A DNA stretch of 60,842 nucleotides, counting the filler. It is 6 parts of 6 records of this genome, joined end to end, with 100 filler letters (N's around TTAATTAATTAA, not from the genome) between each part and the next. Parts side by side here need not be neighbours in the genome. Positions count along the whole stretch, not along the records: positions 52,072 to 60,842 come from SRR31156797_18268; 5 more parts are not named here. One strand, given 5' to 3'. The translations under genes were made by a program, and so were the position numbers. How positions within the stretch are numbered: position 1 is the stretch's first letter; each line of letters opens with the position of its first letter. The notes under the pieces are model-generated. The model searched no databases. It was given only the letters and a program-made list of their open reading frames with translations, and was not told where the DNA came from. Shown here piece after piece: positions 17,283 through 60,842 of this stretch.

Positions 17283-17382
17283 NNNNNNNNNNNNNNNNNN
17301 NNNNNNNNNNNNNNNNNNNNNNNNNNTTAATTAATTAANNNNNNNNNNNNNNNNNNNNNNNNNNNNNNNNNNNNNNNNNNNN
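17283..17382. other. Artificial contig spacer
   Basis: N44-TTAATTAATTAA-N44 (stops in all six frames). Confidence 0.99.
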
Positions 17383-23995: not shown

Positions 23996-24095
23996 NNNNN
24001 NNNNNNNNNNNNNNNNNNNNNNNNNNNNNNNNNNNNNNNTTAATTAATTAANNNNNNNNNNNNNNNNNNNNNNNNNNNNNNNNNNNNNNNNNNNN
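23996..24095. other. Artificial contig spacer
   Basis: N44-TTAATTAATTAA-N44. Confidence 0.99.
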
Positions 24096-29905: not shown

Positions 29906-30005
29906 NNNNNNNNNNNNNNNNNNNNNNNNNNNNNNNNNNNNNNNNNNNNTTAATTAATTAANNNNNNNNNNNNNNNNNNNNNNNNNNNNNNNNNNNNNNN
30001 NNNNN
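29906..30005. other. Artificial contig spacer
   Basis: N44-TTAATTAATTAA-N44. Confidence 0.99.
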
Positions 30006-41329: not shown

Positions 41330-41429
41330 NNNNNNNNNNNNNNNNNNNNNNNNNNNNNNNNNNNNNNNNNNNNTTAATTAATTAANNNNNNNNNNNNNNN
41401 NNNNNNNNNNNNNNNNNNNNNNNNNNNNN
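41330..41429. other. Artificial contig spacer
   Basis: N44-TTAATTAATTAA-N44. Confidence 0.99.
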
Positions 41430-48232: not shown

Positions 48233-50374
48233 TTAAAATTCATATCCAATACTTAATTGGTAATAAACACCGGACATGTCAATCTCTCTATATTTTAAAC
48301 CATCTTGATCTAAATCTTGTTCAAGTGCAAGTTCCCCGTCATAGTATTTAAAATCATCAAATTTTAAATTTTTATACCCAACTTCAGCTCCAATAAGTAA
48401 ACCGCCATAATTAAGCTCAAGACCTGTCTTAGCAGCAGCAGAAACACTTTCGTCAACAGCTTGTTCAATAATATCAGCGTCTTCATAATCAGACGAATCA
48501 GTAATCTCTCTAACGTCAGTTTGATTAACGGCACCGAAACCTACATTTGCTCCGATGTATGAAACAAGAGTTCTACCGATTAGGTTAATATTGTATCTCC
48601 CACCAATAGTTAATTCAACACCCTTAACTTCATCTTCTATATTTATATTACCAATTTCCATCTCCCAGTTAACAGGCCATGATAATGCACTGAAGCCAAT
48701 TCCGAGTTTCCATTGAGATGCATCCAACTCTTTTTCTGATATATCCGTTCCGTTATTACCATAATAACCGGTTTTTCCATCAGAATAAGTTGCTTCATCA
48801 TTTTGAATCACTTTAGCATTCTGAATCGATCTTTTTATTTCAAATCGAAGCTTAATATTGCTATCGTTACTTTCTTTTGCGTACATATTTTCTTTAACAT
48901 CCAAAGCACCTCTAACAACTTTTGCTTCAGCATAGTTTTCATTTATTTCCATTATAACGATTTTACCTTTTTGCTTTCGTTTTTCTGATAAAATAAATCC
49001 GGTATCTGGATCTTTTATAATTTCTCCGTTTTTATTATCATAGATATAATAAACATCACCTTTGGCAATATTCATATTTGTTCCTAGGTTTAATAGAACT
49101 TTATTACGTTTTTTCTTAAAGATCCTACCTTGTATTTTTACTTCTTCTTTTGCTTCTCTTATTACAAAACCAGGTTTAACAATAACTCCTGAATTAAACA
49201 CTTCAAAAATTTGTCCAACTGAAACTCGGTCTTCTACACTTGTAATCCTAAGGCCTGCAATTTTATTTTTAAATAATTTATCATTAGGATGATAAATAAA
49301 GAAATCCATATGTTTTTTAACTCCAACTTCAGAACCTTTATTTATCTCTACAATTTTATTTCTTGCAATATCTAAAATTCCGGCACTAATAATAAACTCT
49401 TCATCAACAGCAGCAATAATTTTGTACATTAAATCCTCTCTGGCATCAACGATAGATTTATTTCTATTAGCGTTTTCGAATTCATTACCGTTATGGTATC
49501 CACTACCAGTTGCAGTTTTGGAAATAGTAAATTTAGCATTTTCTCTATCATAGAATTTTATTTCTAATTGAATTGTAGTTCCATAAGCATCATACTCAAT
49601 TATATCTCCGGTTTTGAAATCTCTTACTTCCTCGATTTCATCAATATAGAAACTTAAAATTTTCCCTGAAACTACATAGTCAGCTAATTGTTTATCTTTA
49701 ACAATATTAAATCTGTTAGAACTTATTAACCAGCTTGAAAATTGTTGTTCAATTGCTCCGAGAGATCCGTTTTCTGAATGACCTAGAAAATTTTCTATAA
49801 ATACATTTTTCTTCTTATTTAGAATTTTTGAAATACTTGTAATCTCTGCTTCTACCTCAGCTTTTGTAAAAACCAGGTTTTTAGTTTTACTATCTCCCAA
49901 TAATGATAAAATAGTTTGATAATTATAAAACTCGTTAATTAAATCAGAAATACTTCTTAAAGCTTGTAATCTGCTTTCCTTCTCCATAGTTTTACTTTTA
50001 GAATAGCTAGTATTAATTCTCTCGTATAATTGGTCAATCTCTCTTGAATATACAGGTATCGCACTGCTATCTAAATAAGCTTCAGTTCTGTATTGTCTTA
50101 CTTTTTCCCTAACAGTATTATATTTAACACCAATTAGCTTTATATTTGAAGATACATTCGTTTCTTTTGAAGTACTTTTGAAATACTCATCATTTTGTAC
50201 CGCTTCGATATTATAGAACTCAGAATTAACATCTACAGATATAGTGCTGGTTAATTCCTCGAGTGCAGCTCTTCGTGATTCTTTTTCATTTTTTCCGTAC
50301 CCTGTTCCAGTTAATGCTGCCATTGAAAAAGATGTTATCAATAAGCAAAGCAGGATAATTATTCCCTTTTTCAT
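48233..50374 (-). CDS. Multidomain envelope protein: LPP20-like, CsgG/FlgT-middle-like, two FlgT_C-like domains and a C-terminal beta-barrel
   Basis: Signal peptide; GYG....SRRAALEEL..I.V.V; NRFNIV..ADYVVSGKI; INKG...GV / LNLG...I.KGD..DPDTG; ends YYQLSIGYEF. Confidence 0.6.
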   Translation of the reverse strand: MKKGIIILLCLLITSFSMAALTGTGYGKNEKESRRAALEELTSTISVDVNSEFYNIEAVQNDEYFKSTSKETNVSSNIKLIGVKYNTVREKVRQYRTEAYLDSSAIPVYSREIDQLYERINTSYSKSKTMEKESRLQALRSISDLINEFYNYQTILSLLGDSKTKNLVFTKAEVEAEITSISKILNKKKNVFIENFLGHSENGSLGAIEQQFSSWLISSNRFNIVKDKQLADYVVSGKILSFYIDEIEEVRDFKTGDIIEYDAYGTTIQLEIKFYDRENAKFTISKTATGSGYHNGNEFENANRNKSIVDAREDLMYKIIAAVDEEFIISAGILDIARNKIVEINKGSEVGVKKHMDFFIYHPNDKLFKNKIAGLRITSVEDRVSVGQIFEVFNSGVIVKPGFVIREAKEEVKIQGRIFKKKRNKVLLNLGTNMNIAKGDVYYIYDNKNGEIIKDPDTGFILSEKRKQKGKIVIMEINENYAEAKVVRGALDVKENMYAKESNDSNIKLRFEIKRSIQNAKVIQNDEATYSDGKTGYYGNNGTDISEKELDASQWKLGIGFSALSWPVNWEMEIGNINIEDEVKGVELTIGGRYNINLIGRTLVSYIGANVGFGAVNQTDVREITDSSDYEDADIIEQAVDESVSAAAKTGLELNYGGLLIGAEVGYKNLKFDDFKYYDGELALEQDLDQDGLKYREIDMSGVYYQLSIGYEF

Positions 50375-51971: not shown

Positions 51972-52071
51972 NNNNNNNNNNNNNNNNNNNNNNNNNNNNN
52001 NNNNNNNNNNNNNNNTTAATTAATTAANNNNNNNNNNNNNNNNNNNNNNNNNNNNNNNNNNNNNNNNNNNN
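51972..52071. other. Artificial contig spacer
   Basis: N44-TTAATTAATTAA-N44. Confidence 0.99.
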
Positions 52072-52493
52072 TTCATGGCTTCAAAGGAGGAAATCGTCCA
52101 GCCTTCTCTCCGGGCATGATTGCATCCCTTGATACCGAAGCAGCTGAAGTCCAGATCCGCAGCGCCGGAGCCATGCTCCCGGACAAAAGTGTCTGCGGCT
52201 TTCAGAACGGAGCTGTTATTATTACCGCACAGACCTTTATCGGCGGTAAAAATAATAAGATGCTCCTTCGTAATTTCGTCGTAGCCTTTGACAACGGGGT
52301 GGGAACAGTCTTTTAAAGAAGCTCCCATAACCCTATGGATCTCATCCACGGCGCCACTGAAAGCCTCCAGATTAGAAAAGGCAGCCAGATGCTTACGCAG
52401 CTTGATCGAAGAAATCATATTCATGGCCCTGGTCACCTTCTGCATATTCTGAAGGGACTGGATCTTACGTCCGAGATCTCTGACGTTACTCAT
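52072..52493 (-). CDS. atpG: F1 ATP synthase gamma subunit, 3'-truncated
   Basis: [35 protein letters not shown]; start ATG 52493 overlaps the atpA stop. Confidence 0.93.
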
Positions 52494-54667
52494 AGTCCCC
52501 TCTTTGTCTCCAGAATCAGCTCTCTCAAGGTATCCACCGAACCGGCACCTGCCCACTCCTTCTCAAAGTCTTTATGCTGGACAACTGCGGCTAGTGCGGA
52601 GAGAGTAACCAGGTGGAAATGCCGCTGGTCCCTGGAGCCCACCAGAAAGAAGATGGACCTGACCGCATCACGGGACTCATCGAAACGGATACCCTTTCTG
52701 GAACGGACGATCAACAACTTGAAGGTATTCTCCTGATCCACAACAACATGGGGAACCGCAAAGAAAGGGCTCAAGGCGGTCGAGCTGGCCTTCTCCCGCT
52801 CCTCAAAGAGCTCGAGAAGAGTTTTCTGGTCAAAAGAATCATCAGCCAGAACTTTAGCAGCCTTCCTGAACAATCCCTCCCGTGAGGTATTTCTATTGTA
52901 GTCGATAACGGCGCAAGACCGGATCAGGGAGCGGAAGCGGTCCTGCTCATCCTCATCCTTACCGGAAAGGATCTGCTCCATCTCCTCCTTGACCTTGCGA
53001 GTGGAGAAATCTTTTGTATAAAGTCGCTCTACCAGCTTCAGCATATCGCGGTTAATGGAAGAAGGCCGTTCACTCATGGCGACGGAGAGATTGGCATTAA
53101 AACCGGCATCCGTTCCAGGCTTGCTGGCTCCGGGACGAAACCGTTTCTCAAAATCCTCAAAAATCCTATCCGCTTCTTCCTCAAGAATCTCATCGAAGGC
53201 TTTCTTCTCCCGCAGCCGGGACATAAAAGCCCCCTCATGCTCATCCAGGTAGTCGAAAAGATCCTTCTGATAGTTGAGCAACTTATTGCTGGGATATCTG
53301 TCCAGACGACCGGAGGTTCCGGCTTTGAGAATCATAACCTGTTTATATACATCGATGGGAGTATACTGGGGCTGTTTGAGAATCTCCGTCAGACACTCCC
53401 CTCTTTTAAGTTGGTTCTTGGTGGCACTGTCCAGATCCGAAGAGAACTGCATAAAGGCCGCCAGTTCCCGGAACTGGGCCAGATCGATCCGGAGAGAACC
53501 GGATGTCTGTTTCATAACCTTGAGCTGAGCGTCTCCACCCACGCGGGAAACGGAAATACCCACATTTATAGCCGGACGGAGTCCTGAATTGAACAGGCTG
53601 GTCTCCAGAAAAATCTGACCGTCAGTAATGGAGATAACATTTGTAGGAATATAAGCGGATACATCCCCTTCCTGGGTTTCAACGATGGGAAGAGAGGTGA
53701 GGGAGCCTCCGCCCTGGACGTCGCTCATTTTGGCGGCCCGCTCCAACAACCGGGAGTGGAGGTAAAAGATATCACCGGGATAGGCTTCCCGTCCGGGAGA
53801 GCGCCTCATAAGAAGAGAAAGTTCCCGATAGGCCTGTGAGTGTTTGGTCAGATCGTCATAAATAACCAGGGCATGTTTACCGTTATCTCTGAAGTACTCG
53901 GCCATGGCGGTAGCTGCATAAGGCGCGAGATACTGCAAAGAAGCCGGATCCGATGCGGTAGCCGCCACCACAGTGGTATATTCCATAACTCCGTAGCGTT
54001 TAAGAGTTTCTACAATCTGAACGACCGAAGAGCGTTTCTGGCCGATGGCCACATAAAAACAGTAAACCTTGTCCTCGGAGAGAGTTGTTTTCTGATTCAG
54101 AATGGTATCTATAGCAATCGTTGTCTTTCCGGTTCTTCTGTCGCCGATAATCAGCTCACGCTGCCCCCTCCCTATAGGAATCATGGAATCGATAGCTTTC
54201 AGACCTGTCTGCATGGGTTCGGAAACATCCTGACGGGCGATAATCCCCGGTCCCTTGGCTTCCACATTGTTATACACGGCAGCCTTAACGGGCCCCAGAC
54301 CGTCCAGAGGATTCCCCAGAGGATCAACCACACGACCCAGAAGAGACTCCCCTGCGGGAACCCGGGCCACATTGTGGGTCCGCTTTACAAGACAGCCCTC
54401 CCGGACCTTCTCGTGACCGGAAAAGAGAATAACTCCCACTGTCTCCTCTTCCAGATTCATAACCATTCCCTCGATGGTGAGCCCATCTTCAACTTCGATC
54501 TCGACAAGCTCCCCCATCAGAATGTTGTCCAGTCCCCATACCTGGGCGATTCCGTCTCCCGACTGTAAAACCCTTCCTACTTCGATCTCCCTCCCCTCCG
54601 GGGAAAATCCGGCAATGCGGCTTTTCAAGACATCCAGCAATTCAGCCGGCTTTATTTCTTCTCTCAT
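52490..54667 (-). CDS. atpA: F1 ATP synthase alpha subunit with C-terminal PTS EIIA type-2 domain fusion
   Basis: [56 protein letters not shown] (aa 1-510); then [19 protein letters not shown]...KGIRF...IFFLVG...HLVTLSAL. Confidence 0.95.
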
Positions 54668-55209
54668 TCTGATTTCCTATACAATACTCTTTTCAGCTGC
54701 CCAATCCTGCTTTTCAGAGACAGATCAAGCAGCCTGTTGTTCCACTGAAAAGTCATCCCCCCCATCAAATCGGATCGGGCGCACCAGTCCGCTTCCAACT
54801 TTCCGGGGATTCTCTTTCCCAGTCCCTCAAGAATATCCTGCTTCAGCTGTTTATCAGGGGAGGACACCGTTTCAATACGGACTCTGGTTACTCCCAGATC
54901 CCGATCACGCTCATCCCGCAGGGCTTCCGTCAGATAGGGCAGAGCCCCGAGCCGTCTGTTCTGCTCCATAAGCCGGACAGCCGTGCCCGTCATTTCACCC
55001 AGATAGGGCAGTAGAGCCGTCTCTATAAAGACCCGGCTTTTTTCGCTAGATGGATCCGCCGTCAGGCAGAACTCTCGTATTTCCGAGACATCTCCCATCA
55101 GTCGGTCCAGGATATCCATATCCTCTTCCAGAAGATCATGGAGATCCAGATCCCGGGAGGCTTCATACAAAGCCCTGGCATAGCGGCGGACAACAGTATG
55201 ACCTTTCAT
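54664..55209 (-). CDS. atpH: ATP synthase delta subunit
   Basis: [19 protein letters not shown]...LLDLSLKSR; position between b and alpha. Confidence 0.88.
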
Positions 55210-55688
55210 AGCTTACCCACCAGCTCTCGGCTGAACTCCCGCTCTCTCTCTCCTACGACACTGATACCTGTTACTTCTTCCGTAGCACTGCAAATAAAGT
55301 CCGCCAACTCCGTCCTGAGGGCTTCAATCATAATCTGACGTTCCTGTTCGGCCTGGCGTCTGGCCTGTTCTAATATGGCTTTCGCCTCTTTATCAGCCTG
55401 ACGGGAAAGCTTCTTCCGGAGAGCATCCCCTTCCTGACGGATATTCAAGAGGATTCTGTCGGCCTCGGCCTCGGCCTGCTTTAGAACTTCATCCCGTTCC
55501 GCTTTTATCTCATCCAGCCTTCTTTCCACCTCAGCCGTCTTATCCACGGAAGAACGGATATACTCCTCCCGCTCCTGAAGATTTTTCAGTATCACGGGAA
55601 CCACATAACGGGCGAGAATGAAAAATAGAATACCGAAGCTTATCCAGGTCCAGATGGCCAGGCCCGGTTCTAATTTGAATAAATCCAT
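55206..55688 (-). CDS. atpF: ATP synthase F0 subunit b
   Basis: PGLAIWTWISFGILFFIL...P.I...LQEREEYI plus long helix. Confidence 0.9.
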   Translation of the reverse strand: MDLFKLEPGLAIWTWISFGILFFILARYVVPVILKNLQEREEYIRSSVDKTAEVERRLDEIKAERDEVLKQAEAEADRILLNIRQEGDALRKKLSRQADKEAKAILEQARRQAEQERQIMIEALRTELADFICSATEEVTGISVVGEREREFSRELVGKL

Positions 55689-55693
55689 AAGAC

Positions 55694-55921
55694 TTATTGA
55701 AAGATAACCAGCAATCCGACGATAGCCCCGAAAAAGGCCAGACCTTCAATCAACGCAGCCATCAGAATCATATTCGTCCGGATGTCTTTCTTTTCCGATG
55801 GCTGTCTGGCAATGGCCTCCATCGCCCGTCCGCCGACCAGACCGATACCAATGCCACCTCCGCAAATACCAAGACCGGCTCCGACAACCGCGAGTGCTTT
55901 CGCAAGTAATGTTAACTCCAT
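55694..55921 (-). CDS. atpE: ATP synthase F0 subunit c (H+-type signature)
   Basis: GxGxGxG, IARQP, ALIEG; lacks the Na+-type Q...ES/T..Y ligands. Confidence 0.93.
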   Translation of the reverse strand: MELTLLAKALAVVGAGLGICGGGIGIGLVGGRAMEAIARQPSEKKDIRTNMILMAALIEGLAFFGAIVGLLVIFQ

Positions 55922-55949
55922 AATAATCTCCTAAAAATCTGAATCTCGT

Positions 55950-56795
55950 TTAATGCTCACTGGCATTGGAAATAAAAATACAACTTAAAAGGGTGAACAC
56001 CAGAGCCTGAAGAAAAACGATAAGGACTTCCAACAGGTAAGTGAACACCGCAAAAGGAACGGAAATGAAACCCATAAAGGGGCTGACGATGATGATCAAT
56101 ACCAGAAAAGAGAGTATGGCCATATGACCGGCAAACATATTGGCAAAGAGCCGGATGGCCAGAACCATAGCCTTGGTAAAGATGCTCAGAAATTCCAGAA
56201 AGGCCACGAACAGACCGATTCCAAGTCCCGTTCCCGATGGAAACAGATTCCTGAAGAAGGCTTTGAAGCCGATCTCACTGAATCCGACGATAAAGGTTAA
56301 AAGCAGAGTCATGATTGCCATGGCCCCTGTGACGTTGATGTTTCCTGTGGCGGTTTTCAGGGCGGGTATAAGGCCGATCAGATTGGCGGTCAAAATGAAA
56401 AGAAACATGGTGGCGAAGAAAGCCAGCCAGCGTCGGCCCTTCTCTTCTCCCATAACAGGATATACGATCTCGTCCTTCACATAGATAACCAGTGACTCCA
56501 GCAGCAACTGCCCTTTGCGGGGTTTCAAAGTCCTTCGCCGGGAGAATCCCAGATAGAGGCCGGAAATCAAAACTGTAGACATTAAAAGCATCAGGAGATG
56601 AACGGTCAAATACCCGGGAAGTTGAAGCTCGGGACAATAGGGAAAGAGCTCCATTACCCTGCCGTTCAAAACATGATCGAAGAGAATATCAGAAACATTT
56701 GATTCAGCTGACAGGGGTTCAGATACAAAGAGGAGAAGGAGAGAACAGGCTCTCAGGACTGTCTTTTTTCTAATTAAACTCTGGCAAGTAATCAT
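55950..56795 (-). CDS. atpB: ATP synthase F0 subunit a
   Basis: NLIGLIP, TATGNINVT, LAIRLFANMFAGH, LQALVFTLL. Confidence 0.93.
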   Translation of the reverse strand: MITCQSLIRKKTVLRACSLLLLFVSEPLSAESNVSDILFDHVLNGRVMELFPYCPELQLPGYLTVHLLMLLMSTVLISGLYLGFSRRRTLKPRKGQLLLESLVIYVKDEIVYPVMGEEKGRRWLAFFATMFLFILTANLIGLIPALKTATGNINVTGAMAIMTLLLTFIVGFSEIGFKAFFRNLFPSGTGLGIGLFVAFLEFLSIFTKAMVLAIRLFANMFAGHMAILSFLVLIIIVSPFMGFISVPFAVFTYLLEVLIVFLQALVFTLLSCIFISNASEH

Positions 56796-57085
56796 GGGTA
56801 AATCCTTATGACTTTGATTACCACCTTTCCTGAAAACTAGTCAATCACAGTTTCGGATATTGTCCTATACTGACCGACATTGTCCATTTCAATGGGTTTA
56901 TAATCCGCAAAAAGAAGATTGCCCCCTTTGATATTCCTACCGATTAAAAAATAAGGTCCCACCCTACCGGACACGACAGTACAGCCAGGTTGACCGGGGG
57001 GAGCCATCGCAGCCCGGAGGCCGTGCCGGTTCCGTTCTAACAAGCCCCGCCGCCGGGAAAAGTCTCCGGGATGGGGCAATCCATA

Positions 57086-57624
57086 TCAACTCTTAAAAGA
57101 GATCATCGACTCCTTAACCACAGAAGGATGAATATAAAACAGATCTTCCGACTGACTGCTTCGGCATAGGAGCTTCCCGTCCTTCTCATTCCAGACAGAA
57201 ACGGTGTAATTCCCGTTGCTTCCGGAAAGGCTGAATTCCCAGTGCGCGGAGTCTCCCGTCGTCTCAAGCTCTATGATATCTCTGGAATCTACCACTCCTT
57301 TGGCAATACTGTCGAAGTGGGAACTGGTACTGAGAAACTGAAACAAACCGATTAGAGGACGGGGAATCAGAAAGAGAACATTTCCTATAATATAGAGAAA
57401 GAAATTAACGGCCGAATTATAAATGTAAGAATCAGAGGCAGAAAATTAAAAAAATGTCTCAGACTGACCTGACCGATCAGAAAGTATGTGGAAAAGTAAA
57501 ACCAGCCGGTGATTGACTTACACAGACCGTGAGCCGTATTTATATCATTGCCGTCTATGGAAACCTTCCCGGCCGTGGGCTGAAGATAGCCTGTGAGAAT
57601 ACGCAGAGTGGTAGACTTTCCCTC
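57086..57624 (-). pseudogene. Collapsed relic of a GldA/GldF/DUF4340-type ABC transporter operon
   Basis: Minus-strand fragments GKSTTLRILTGYLQPTAGKVSIDG (ABC ATPase), GWFYFSTYFLIGQVSLRHFF and FQFLSTSSHFDSIAKGVVDSRDII (GldF-like permease), then a DUF4340-like tail; no start codon, frameshift. Confidence 0.7.
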
Positions 57625-57814
57625 TCCCCTGGTTGCGGAAAGAAGGAGAGAGTCTCCTGAAAAAAGAGAAAAGTAAATATGAGTAAGAATAATAAATTAG
57701 ATTTCTCACAACTCGACTATAATCAGCTTTGCTTTTTTTTTGTCAAGAAATGGGGCACCATGCTTTAACAACGTCATTTTTAGAGAAATACATATACATT
57801 CCGACATATCCCCT

Positions 57815-59467
57815 TCAAACCAACGAACACAGGGGCAGTCTGGAGGGAATAGAGTATAAAAAGCCCTGAATCAGATCACAGGGGAGCTCCATCAGACGAT
57901 GCAACTGTTCTTCCGTCTCCACTCCTTCAGCTACGATCCTGAAGCCGTTGGCCCTTGCAATCTCGCAAATACAGCGAACCATAACAAAGTCCCGTTCACT
58001 TCTATTGATTCCATCTATGAAAGATCTGTCGATCTTCAGTTCATAAAAGGGGAGCTTGTTGATATACAGAAGAGAATTATAGCCAGTCCCGAAGTCATCC
58101 AGTGAAAATTTTATTCCCAGACGGCTGAGGCTTCTCATGTTTTCTCTCACATCATCAAGATCATCTAAAAGTACCGATTCGATTACCTCAAAAATTAGAC
58201 GGTCGGTCAGAGAAGGGTGACTGTTCATCAGCGTTTCCACATAATCAATAAAGAGAGAGCTGTACAGACAGGATGGAGGGATGTTAACAGAAATCTCCGT
58301 TTGATCACCATAAAGCGAGTCAATCCTGTCCAGGTCCGACATCGCCATATCCAGAACGAGTTCCGTAAGCCTACGCGTCAGATTCAGCCGGGAGATAACA
58401 GATAGAAATTCCGAAGGAGGAATCATCCCTCTAGAGGGAGATTCCCAGCGGATCAGGGCTTCCAGCCCCATAACCCGTTGTACCGTCCGATCCCGTTTCT
58501 CCTGATAGCAGAGGAAGAACTCATTTCTCTCCAGGGCCTCTTGTATATCCGTAAAAAGATCGGCTTCATTTCTTATCCTCTCCTCCATACTGGCGGAATA
58601 TACGATATGCCTGGGCTTAAGAAAAAAAGGATAGTCTATGGCCATGGCTGCTCTATGATAGAGCCTCTGAAAACTGTCGCCATGCTTCGGATAAACCGCA
58701 AAGGCACTGTGAAGACAGAGAGAATATATCCCTCCCTCCCGCCTGAAGACATCGAACAGATCGTCCCGGAGAGCTTCCAGATATATGTTTATATCACCTT
58801 CATATTCGCTCCAGAGGGCAAATTCCACTCCCGTAAGATGGGCCGAACAGAGAGTATCATCCTCATGATGTTGCAAGGCTCTTCCGAACCTGCGGATAAT
58901 CCGGTTTCCGAACTCCCTGCCGTAAACGGTATTGATGATACGGAAGTTCTTCAGATCCAGAATAACCAGATACCCCCTGGAGCAGCCTTGAAGAATACGC
59001 TCGTCTACATAGTTCTCCATCCATTTCTGTCCCCTCATTCCCGTCTGATAGCTGATGCGCTCCTCGCTATCACGACTTCTTCCCATCCAGGTGAATGTTC
59101 CTAAAAGAATGACCAGAGTATAGAAAAGAACACTCACTTTGCTCAAATGGTGAAGAGACTCAAACTCCCTTCGATTGAAAAGTGTTCCGTGAGAGAGGAA
59201 AACTGCCGTAGACAGTGTGAGAACCATGGCAGCCGACAGAGACATCCTCTGCCTTCCGGAGAACTTCTTCCTGAAGAGCAGCCCCCAGACAGAAAGGACG
59301 ATAGAGATGAGAAAGGCGGCCTCAGACAATCGTAAAGCCCCCTGGATGACAAATATCTCAACACCCAGCATCAGAACGGAAAGCAAAGCCCCTGAGATCA
59401 TGACAATATTGAAATACGGAATCTCTTTGGCCCATCGAATTAATAACCTTCTAATATAAACGACCAT
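57815..59467 (-). CDS. Membrane GGDEF(degenerate)-EAL c-di-GMP phosphodiesterase
   Basis: About 4 TMs; DLKNFRIINTVYG...TGVEF (degenerate GGDEF); EALIRW, SVN, EVIE, DDFGTGY, KID, AEGVET, QGF. Confidence 0.9.
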   Translation of the reverse strand: MVVYIRRLLIRWAKEIPYFNIVMISGALLSVLMLGVEIFVIQGALRLSEAAFLISIVLSVWGLLFRKKFSGRQRMSLSAAMVLTLSTAVFLSHGTLFNRREFESLHHLSKVSVLFYTLVILLGTFTWMGRSRDSEERISYQTGMRGQKWMENYVDERILQGCSRGYLVILDLKNFRIINTVYGREFGNRIIRRFGRALQHHEDDTLCSAHLTGVEFALWSEYEGDINIYLEALRDDLFDVFRREGGIYSLCLHSAFAVYPKHGDSFQRLYHRAAMAIDYPFFLKPRHIVYSASMEERIRNEADLFTDIQEALERNEFFLCYQEKRDRTVQRVMGLEALIRWESPSRGMIPPSEFLSVISRLNLTRRLTELVLDMAMSDLDRIDSLYGDQTEISVNIPPSCLYSSLFIDYVETLMNSHPSLTDRLIFEVIESVLLDDLDDVRENMRSLSRLGIKFSLDDFGTGYNSLLYINKLPFYELKIDRSFIDGINRSERDFVMVRCICEIARANGFRIVAEGVETEEQLHRLMELPCDLIQGFLYSIPSRLPLCSLV

Positions 59468-60842
59468 CAGGACTTTCCTTATCCAATGACTCTAACAACG
59501 ATAATTCTCTGCTCTCCGGCTCCTGCCGGCCTGACTCGGACAAGTCCTCCTCCAGACGGAATCCGGATAGACTCTTTTTTACCCGTTCTATCAGCCCGGT
59601 GCTCTCTTTTATATTGATCTCCACATCAGAGAACGCCTTTCCGATCATTACATTGTCACGAACCACATCATCCGTAGCCTTGCTGATGGCATCTCCGTTC
59701 TTCTGAAGCTTCTCCATCTCACTGCTCAGAAGGGCGATGGAACCACTCATAACGCCCGTCTCACGGTCCACACTCTCCGAAGTGGATCTCATGCTCTCCA
59801 GGGCCTCGCTAATCTGCCGGTTCCCTACACTCTGTTCCTGAAGAGCCGCATTAAGATCGGCCTCCAGACCGATAACCACGTCCACAAGGTTCTGAATGGC
59901 TGCCAGACTCTTTGCGGCCACTCCCGTTCCCTCCGAGATCATCCGGATCCGATCGCTGATGTCCGTCATAGCGTCGCTGATAAACAGGGACTGTTGACCG
60001 GTGGTCTCCGCCAGTTTGCGAATTTCTTCGGCCACCACGGAGAATCCGGCTCCGGCGCTCCCGGCATGAGCCGCCTCAATGGCAGCGTTGATAGAAAGAA
60101 GGTTTGTCTGGGCGGCGATATCGGAGATAATCGTATTCATCTCCAGAAGCGCGGAAGATTTGTCCAGAATCCAGGCGACATCCTGACTCACATCCCCCAG
60201 AAGAGCACGCCCTTCGTCGGAGGCGCTTCTTAATTTCTGGTAATGCCCCCGGGACCGGTCGGTAACCGATGCGATGGAGTTGATCCCCGCCATCATCTGC
60301 TCCACAGCCGAAACCGATTCCATGATTTTCTCATTCAGCACGGCAACGGCGGCCGCAAGGACATCAATCCCCTCCATAAAGGCTGAAAGAGAGTTATCCA
60401 CTTCCCCCACTCCCCTGCTGTTATCAGCACACGCATCCTGCATACGTTCAACAGACAAATTCACATTGGCAAAGTTCCTGCCCGCCGTCTCCATCTTCCC
60501 GGAAAGAAGACCGTCATTGCGCCCCAAAGACTTAACGGAATCGAGGATGATCAGCAGTTTGCGGCTGAGGTCGGTTGTCAGGCTGTTAAAACCGCTTGAA
60601 AGCTGCCCGATCTCATCACGACCCCTGTACTCCATCTTCACCCTGAAATCTCCATCGGCGATAAGACGGAATTCATTGCGCAGCATTATAAGAGGCCTGG
60701 TTAAACGATGTGCAATGATCACGATGGATGTGAATATCAGGATAAGAAAGAAGACGACCAGAATAGCAACGGCCCGATAGAGATGAGACAGGCGATGATT
60801 TACAAGCTTTACGGAGATATCACTGAGCAGAAGCCAGCATCC
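59451..60842 (-). CDS. Methyl-accepting chemotaxis protein, 5'-truncated by window end
   Basis: TM plus HAMP (GRDEIGQLS..FN); IAAQTNLLSINAAIEAAHAG..GAGFSVVAEEIRKLAE; frame open to 60842. Confidence 0.93.
   Translation of the reverse strand, partial: GCWLLLSDISVKLVNHRLSHLYRAVAILVVFFLILIFTSIVIIAHRLTRPLIMLRNEFRLIADGDFRVKMEYRGRDEIGQLSSGFNSLTTDLSRKLLIILDSVKSLGRNDGLLSGKMETAGRNFANVNLSVERMQDACADNSRGVGEVDNSLSAFMEGIDVLAAAVAVLNEKIMESVSAVEQMMAGINSIASVTDRSRGHYQKLRSASDEGRALLGDVSQDVAWILDKSSALLEMNTIISDIAAQTNLLSINAAIEAAHAGSAGAGFSVVAEEIRKLAETTGQQSLFISDAMTDISDRIRMISEGTGVAAKSLAAIQNLVDVVIGLEADLNAALQEQSVGNRQISEALESMRSTSESVDRETGVMSGSIALLSSEMEKLQKNGDAISKATDDVVRDNVMIGKAFSDVEINIKESTGLIERVKKSLSGFRLEEDLSESGRQEPESRELSLLESLDKESPDGRLY

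Follow-up and report, generated by a model that had tools for sequence, protein, structure and literature searches.

How a bacterial ATP synthase is stopped or redirected is a long-standing question, and only a few answers are known: epsilon's C-terminal domain, zeta, IF1, Mg-ADP inhibition and the mycobacterial alpha hook. To our knowledge, none of the known F-ATPase inhibitors (the epsilon C-terminal domain, zeta and IF1) is driven by a phosphorelay. In mycobacteria, docking of the C-terminal end of alpha into gamma is reported to block the hydrolysis of ATP, and the ATPase becomes active once this segment is deleted (PMC8698299). The CPA1 antiporter YcgO is reported to be bound and inhibited by PtsN, a protein of the phosphotransferase system (PTS), when PtsN is unphosphorylated (PMC11808508). 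Here we analyzed a 60,842-nucleotide stretch of joined contigs (the window), in which the atpA gene of an atp operon encodes an F1 alpha subunit fused at its C-terminus to a PTS EIIA type-2 domain. The fused protein resembles mycobacterial alpha, whose extension spans about residues 514-548 with alpha533-545 on gamma, in having an extra alpha C-terminal segment at the rotor-facing end of F1. The mycobacterial extension, however, is ~35 amino acids (aa) long and is without a folded domain or signalling input, whereas the tail found here is ~215 aa and ends in a predicted phosphorylatable EIIA. A first-pass annotation, made from the letters of this stretch, had drawn the mycobacterial parallel, which stands as a functional analogy only: a sequence search of the PDB with the tail showed no similarity, returning only four matches, all of them EIIA chains and none an ATP synthase chain. 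With EIIA-Ntr (PtsN; structures 2a0j, 3urr and 1a6j) the tail shares the fold and the phospho-histidine motif, and both are of the PTS class that regulates non-PTS membrane targets, a role that is presumed here. PtsN is a free protein of ~160 aa acting in trans, whereas the EIIA described here is covalently joined to its presumed target and is not a PtsN equivalog. The tail's presumed task, keeping ATP from being hydrolysed wastefully, is also that of the epsilon C-terminal domain, zeta and IF1, to which it has no homology.

The fusion gene lies on the minus strand at 52490..54667, where an open reading frame (ORF) with an ATG start encodes the 725 aa that the first-pass annotation had given, plus a stop. 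Its F1 alpha core (aa 1-506; 53150..54667, minus strand) matched three Pfam domains, each above its cut-off: ATP-synt_ab_N (PF02874) at residues 29-97, ATP-synt_ab (PF00006) at 155-374 with an expect value (E) of 4.5e-83, and ATP-synt_ab_C (PF00306) at 381-506. The Walker A motif GDRRTGKT was read in the translation and is invariant among the fused proteins. The NCBIfam atpA equivalog TIGR00962 scored 746.3 bits against a cut-off of 484.45 and stopped at residue 510 (match 5-510), in agreement with the earlier claim that the alpha fold ends near that residue. The model for the alternate N-type alpha, TIGR03324, gave 561.3 bits, under its cut-off of 750.5, and the operon order is canonical. The tail had been read as PTS EIIA type-2, and a PF00359 scan of the protein upheld this, matching residues 592-720 (E 4.8e-18, 66 bits vs a gathering cut-off of 27, profile positions 13-143 of 144). 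We place the domain at aa 591-725 (52493..52897, minus strand) from this match, from Foldseek and from a predicted local distance difference test score (pLDDT) of 80-91.

The window consists of six contigs joined by N44-TTAATTAATTAA-N44 spacers (17283-17382, 23996-24095, 29906-30005, 41330-41429 and 51972-52071), with GC contents in window order of 42.5, 39.8, 35.7, 35.0, 29.1 and 49.4%; the last and highest is that of the atp contig, 52072-60842. Because contig GC spans 29-49%, the record may be a mixed bin, and this patchwork is what favors reading the fusion as an assembly or gene-calling artefact, produced by a chimeric join or by a missed stop near residue 510. Against that, the whole gene lies within one contig, and an independent DNA contig from another study (9538 letters) spans it in one piece over 52080-55300 with 10 substitutions and 0 gaps; the check for a chimeric join across 53000-53200, as proposed in the first-pass annotation, thus found no chimera. 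The same architecture recurs in 59 protein clusters and 12 species-level genomes, the relatives in which the annotation had asked for it. The artefact reading is already refuted and retains a negligible probability, and the AtpA-EIIA fusion is confirmed as genuine and conserved.

The clusters came from a search with residues 505-725 as the tail query, which returned 62 proteins among 2759 candidates. Fifty-nine of the 62 combine ATP-synthase alpha domains with PF00359, 55 of these at full length (723-745 aa) and four as fragments, and some are on contigs of 1.3-5.6 Mb; the remaining three are amino-acid permease-EIIA proteins. At species level, the match extends to residue 718 or further in 12 of the 80 top-ranking loci, with record labels of Spirochaetota (nine), Kiritimatiellota (two) and Lentisphaeria (one), such that the carriers are Spirochaetota-labelled and Kiritimatiellota/Lentisphaerota-labelled metagenome-assembled genomes. 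A search for stand-alone tails among shorter proteins gave 12 matches, none of them a full-coverage lone tail on a long contig. Most of the 12 come from short contigs, ATP-synt_ab_C is still present in several, and they look like pieces of fused genes, not split genes. In an IQ-TREE phylogeny of 81 rows, which used the alpha core and left out the tail, the 13 fused rows grouped as one clade (SH-aLRT 99), with members labelled as belonging to the Planctomycetes-Verrucomicrobia-Chlamydiae (PVC) group basal and Spirochaetota-labelled members as the crown. A single origin followed by vertical maintenance is the best explanation of this sequence-based tree. The full tail is rare, being present in 3/401 sampled genomes of the phylum of G002 (in which 214/401 have an F-type alpha) and in 3/301 sampled genomes of the phylum of G005. 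Genomes G002, G082, G583, G634 and G706 have no alpha-type match besides the fused gene, which must therefore encode the working alpha subunit and is no spare copy. This is also backed by the atp operon context, with atpH before and atpG after, in 14 of the 15 fusion loci read (the window, L001-L011, L088 and L089), the order being complete through atpD-atpC in 10.

We next considered the predicted active site. The codon of His640, the predicted phospho-acceptor, is at 52748..52750 on the minus strand, where the first-pass annotation had put it: the plus strand reads atg and the minus strand CAT (52750..52748). A phmmer alignment with Escherichia coli EIIA-Mtl (1a3a) set H640 on the histidine of the AVPH motif, a site that is Q in the mutant chain 2few, and R624 and H683 aligned with the conserved Arg and second-His columns. 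We take the corresponding EIIA-Mtl active-site residues to be Arg49, His65 and His111. R624, H640 and H683 are invariant in 56/56 fused proteins and in 13/13 loci as well, so the histidine is conserved among relatives; judged by these alignments, the EIIA active site is intact. By Foldseek, the top matches were the EIIA-Ntr structures 2a0j, 3urr and 1a6j, with template-modelling scores (TM, target-normalised) of 0.74-0.82, and 1a3a matched also; against 2a0j, E was 8.6e-8 and TM 0.82 (target-normalised), with a root-mean-square deviation of 2.2 over 135 columns. The next-best folds were the cytoplasmic domains of SLC4 proteins (Band 3, AE2 and NDCBE; 165-208 columns, E 7.7e-6 to 1e-3). Assignment to the mannitol/fructose/Ntr class, as made in the first-pass annotation, therefore stands by profile, by sequence match to solved structures and by fold, with the qualification that the tail is not a PtsN ortholog. 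As a PtsN/EIIA-Ntr equivalog it was rejected by TIGR01419 (41.3 bits vs 138.7) and NF008145 (28.8 vs 221). It was likewise rejected as a fructose PTS IIA: TIGR00848 (fruA IIA), its best NCBIfam match, gave 47.7 bits with a cut-off of 103.5. The tail fell under the cut-off of every specific EIIA family in NCBIfam.

Whether such a domain has a phosphodonor was addressed in relatives of the window organism, where the rest of the operon (atpD, atpC) was also studied. Relay genes were surveyed in the five genomes behind L002, L003, L006, L009 and L011, and HPr and EI in G082 and G110 as well. HPr and EI were found in 7/7 fusion genomes (5/5 plus G082 and G110), with additional EI-type frames of 744-767 aa in G001 and G003, and HPr kinase adjoins HPr in 4/5. 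These data bear on the idea that the tail works without phosphorylation, as a regulatory or structural module serving ligand binding, assembly or oligomerisation in the manner of the SLC4 EIIA-fold domain. The Foldseek matches to Band 3, AE2 and NDCBE and the failure to reach any specific NCBIfam EIIA cut-off are in its favor. Against it, the Arg/His/His triad is invariant in a domain only about 56% identical and EI and HPr are present in 7/7 genomes, and we consider it distinctly unlikely. The genomes also speak to whether the tail could be an ordinary sugar-transport EIIA that serves a fructose-, mannitol- or ascorbate-type permease and became fused to alpha by chance. Its best family match, fruA IIA, and the EIIC-GAT permeases of G001 and G003 fit that idea; however, the fruA IIA score is sub-threshold, PF02378 EIIC was above cut-off in 0/5 fusion genomes, EIIC-GAT was not found in the other 3/5, and the atp operon is not flanked by an EIIB or EIIC gene in the loci examined, all of which makes it very improbable. 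V-type ATPase subunit I was above cut-off in 2/5 of the fusion genomes.

Between the core and the EIIA domain the tail has two further parts. The first, assigned from conservation and pLDDT, is an AtpA-specific linker at aa 507-541 (53045..53149, minus strand) with the consensus GIDSGYTVNLAMALSQR...INRD. Its mean pairwise identity over 56 sequences is 0.61 vs 0.565 for the EIIA domain, which indicates that the linker is under selection as far as sequence comparison can tell. Its pLDDT is <50 in both monomer models, and such modelled disorder is as expected of a segment that would fold on a partner. The second part, a helical pre-domain at aa 542-590 (52898..53044, minus strand), was delimited by BLASTP against permease P0060, by alignment and by predicted helices. 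The BLASTP match of the tail to P0060 begins at tail residue 38, and helical piece and EIIA together are 39% identical over 183 residues to the C-terminal module of this APC-type amino-acid permease. Such permease modules (P0060-P0062, L083, L086 and L087), which share motifs and phyla with the fusion, are the closest sequence relatives of the tail, which corrects the reading of the first-pass annotation. They differ in that the host is a secondary transporter, not a rotary ATPase, and in that they begin only at about profile position 28-40 and so are without linker aa 507-541. The permease-type module is common: it was found in 56 further genomes of the 401 and in 38/301, in ORFs of about 610-660 aa, and a 50%-identity library held 192 representatives at E <= 1e-30, most starting at profile position 28-40. 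Because helical piece and EIIA match this common module, the tail looks as though it was recruited from a permease-type regulatory module, and by the same comparison the linker looks like the part invented for, or kept by, ATP synthase. We found no characterisation of the APC permease-EIIA modules as far as the literature was searched.

EIIA domains in the fusion genomes are attached to other membrane proteins too. Seven other large EIIA_2 proteins (L081-L087, from G001, G002, G003 and G005) comprise four Na_H_Exchanger-EIIA and three AA_permease-EIIA fusions, and the histidine of the RE..ST..A.PH motif is kept in all seven. In one alternative to control of the synthase itself, F1 is a mere anchor: the three EIIAs tethered at the membrane would bind or phosphorylate partners elsewhere, or gather HPr signalling at the membrane, and leave synthase activity unchanged. 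Precedent comes from free EIIA-Ntr, which is reported to act in trans on many targets (PMC11808508, PMC13104625), and each of the five surveyed fusion genomes has 4-10 EIIA_2 domains in many contexts. The linker, however, is conserved and is not found in permease modules, which points to an F1-specific contact, and each sister-fusion EIIA sits on its own transporter, which suggests that cis control is the rule here. We therefore think it unlikely that F1 is only an anchor.

We propose instead cis regulation of F1Fo by a phospho-histidine on the alpha-fused EIIA, which has precedents in the action of PtsN on YcgO and in the mycobacterial alpha C-terminus, and which we give an even chance of being right. 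Each F1 has three alpha subunits, and each would end in a regulatory module made of linker, helical piece and phosphorylatable EIIA. A largely regulatory PTS relay, running from phosphoenolpyruvate (PEP) through EI to HPr and tuned by HPr kinase, would phosphorylate His640, and the phospho-state of the EIIA would alter the docking of linker and module on F1, either at the rotor foot (gamma/epsilon) or at the alpha/beta C-terminal domains. Docking would turn ATP hydrolysis and/or synthesis on or off. In parallel, the same relay would act on the EIIA-tagged Na+/H+ exchangers and amino-acid permeases, such that maker and users of the ion gradient would be tuned by one carbon/energy signal. The sequence data establish the fusion and its conservation, an intact EIIA active site, the relay genes and the sister fusions; phosphorylation of His640, where the module docks and in which direction it acts are inferred, and the sign of the effect is unreadable from sequence. 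A rotor-latch version, modelled on the mycobacterial alpha533-545/gamma lock, is plausible by analogy. A tentative extension, possible but in our judgement doubtful, is that a PEP-driven relay gates F1Fo via the three EIIAs and the main users and shapers of the ion gradient via fused domains of the same kind, as one hard-wired chemiosmotic controller, in which the linker would be a phospho-switchable rotor latch on an enzyme whose epsilon has lost its brake.

Cis regulation and this extension both draw on the epsilon subunit. In many bacteria, hydrolysis is reported to be inhibited by the two C-terminal helices of epsilon (PMC9317440). In 9/10 fusion loci reaching atpC, epsilon is only 82-96 aa long (e.g. 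L003:14469-14735), the copy in L004 being broken; in the one epsilon scanned, that of L003, only ATP-synt_DE_N (the beta-sandwich) matched. The epsilon of the fused clade is without the two C-terminal helices, the inhibitory C-terminal domain. The possibility that the linker is a relocated epsilon C-terminal domain was rejected, as a comparison by hhalign of columns 1-82 of the tail with 16 full-length epsilon sequences gave a probability of 0.2%. The DELSEED loop of beta is kept in 10/11.

Several observations weigh against cis regulation through His640 and against its extension. In L012, the most divergent member, the fused atpA stands outside any atp operon: at L012:1246-5294 a GFO/IDH/MocA oxidoreductase gene precedes it, and a pair of amtB (ammonium transporter) and P-II genes converges on it from the other side, although it is nonetheless the sole alpha-type match in its own genome. 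EIIA-like folds can work without phosphorylation, as do the cytoplasmic domains of SLC4/Band 3 proteins, and HPr and EI could be widespread in these phyla regardless of the fusion. The structure models are monomers, from which the docking place of the tail is not readable. Short epsilon subunits also occur in unfused relatives, L013 (87 aa, Fibrobacterota label) and L033 (81 aa, Spirochaetota label), for which reason a short epsilon was rejected as a fusion-specific correlate; other unfused relatives have epsilon subunits of 125-151 aa. Finally, metatranscriptome contigs of at least 99% identity cover four parts of atpH/atpA, including 52835-52985 within the tail, and none of them crosses the junction at 53000-53200. 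These matches are no evidence of a single transcript, and DNA carry-over is possible.

The genes around the fusion follow the order atpB-E-F-H-A-G up to the contig end, all on the minus strand. They encode Fo subunit a (atpB, 281 aa, 55950..56795; Pfam ATP-synt_A, E 8.3e-48), Fo subunit c (atpE, 75 aa, 55694..55921; ATP-synt_C, E 7.7e-15), Fo subunit b (atpF, 160 aa, 55206..55688; ATP-synt_B, E 3.5e-19) and subunit delta/OSCP (atpH, 181 aa, 54664..55209; OSCP, E 6.5e-21). The atpH stop and atpA start overlap as ATGA, and so do the fusion stop (TGA, 52492-52490) and atpG start (ATG, 52493-52491), an overlap that the first-pass annotation had reported correctly. Of atpG (gamma), the first 139-140 codons of about 288 are present (52072..52493; Pfam ATP-synt, profile positions 1-131 of 285), and by tblastn the fragment aligns with residues 1-139 of L003 gamma. 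The atp contig starts inside atpG; gamma is therefore cut, and atpD and atpC are outside the window. A Logan contig (16,040 letters) of run X1, probably the source run, reaches ~5.4 kb past the contig end at 52072, and the remaining atpG, atpD and atpC of this organism should therefore exist in public data.

In two relatives, a gene encoding HTH_17 plus EIIA_2 (about 230-248 aa) adjoins the operon, directly after atpC in L003 (14686-15432) and directly before atpB in L011 (1741-2400). From its domains, this gene may provide PTS-linked transcriptional control of the atp operon in some members. It was rejected as a constant operon member, as it adjoins the operon only in these two and none was present in the flanks of the other loci. 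Upstream of the operon, the window encodes a 550-aa GGDEF-EAL protein (57815-59467) and a HAMP-MCP chemoreceptor (59451-60842) that is cut by the end of the window. Two small ORFs (80 and 86 aa) at 56837-57346, in the gap separating the EAL gene from atpB, had no match in Pfam, and each may be non-coding or an atpI/atpZ-like gene. Elsewhere in the window, the neighboring low-GC contig had no match in the plasmid collection. On the contig of 29% GC, 48233-50374 encodes a secreted-looking protein of 713 aa, with FlgT_C matching only below threshold (20.2 bits vs a cut-off of 27), and its gene lies beside genes for a radical SAM/SPASM protein and a HAD hydrolase.

The first-pass annotation knew of no described AtpA-EIIA fusion, and our search agreed: none was found in the full-text literature, with subscription journals and supplements outside its scope. 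The terms 'PTS EIIA type-2' and 'ATP synthase subunit alpha' had no joint match in that literature, a 2026 review of PTS-Ntr has no 'ATP synthase', 'ATPase', 'fused' or 'fusion', and a 2008 paper on PTS evolution has no 'ATP synthase'. Databases currently label these proteins merely 'F0F1 ATP synthase subunit alpha', the only RefSeq name carried by one member. Machine and domain are each known, and the novelty lies in their combination. If the proposed regulation is true, ATP synthase would be controlled in a way that forms a class of its own, by a signalling domain with a defined phosphosite that is covalently part of the catalytic head, and it would be the first direct link of the PTS to oxidative or fermentative energy conversion. 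EIIA domains fused in parallel to cation/proton exchangers and permeases hint at an overlooked regulatory logic of broader reach among Spirochaetota and PVC-group bacteria that are without most sugar-PTS permeases.

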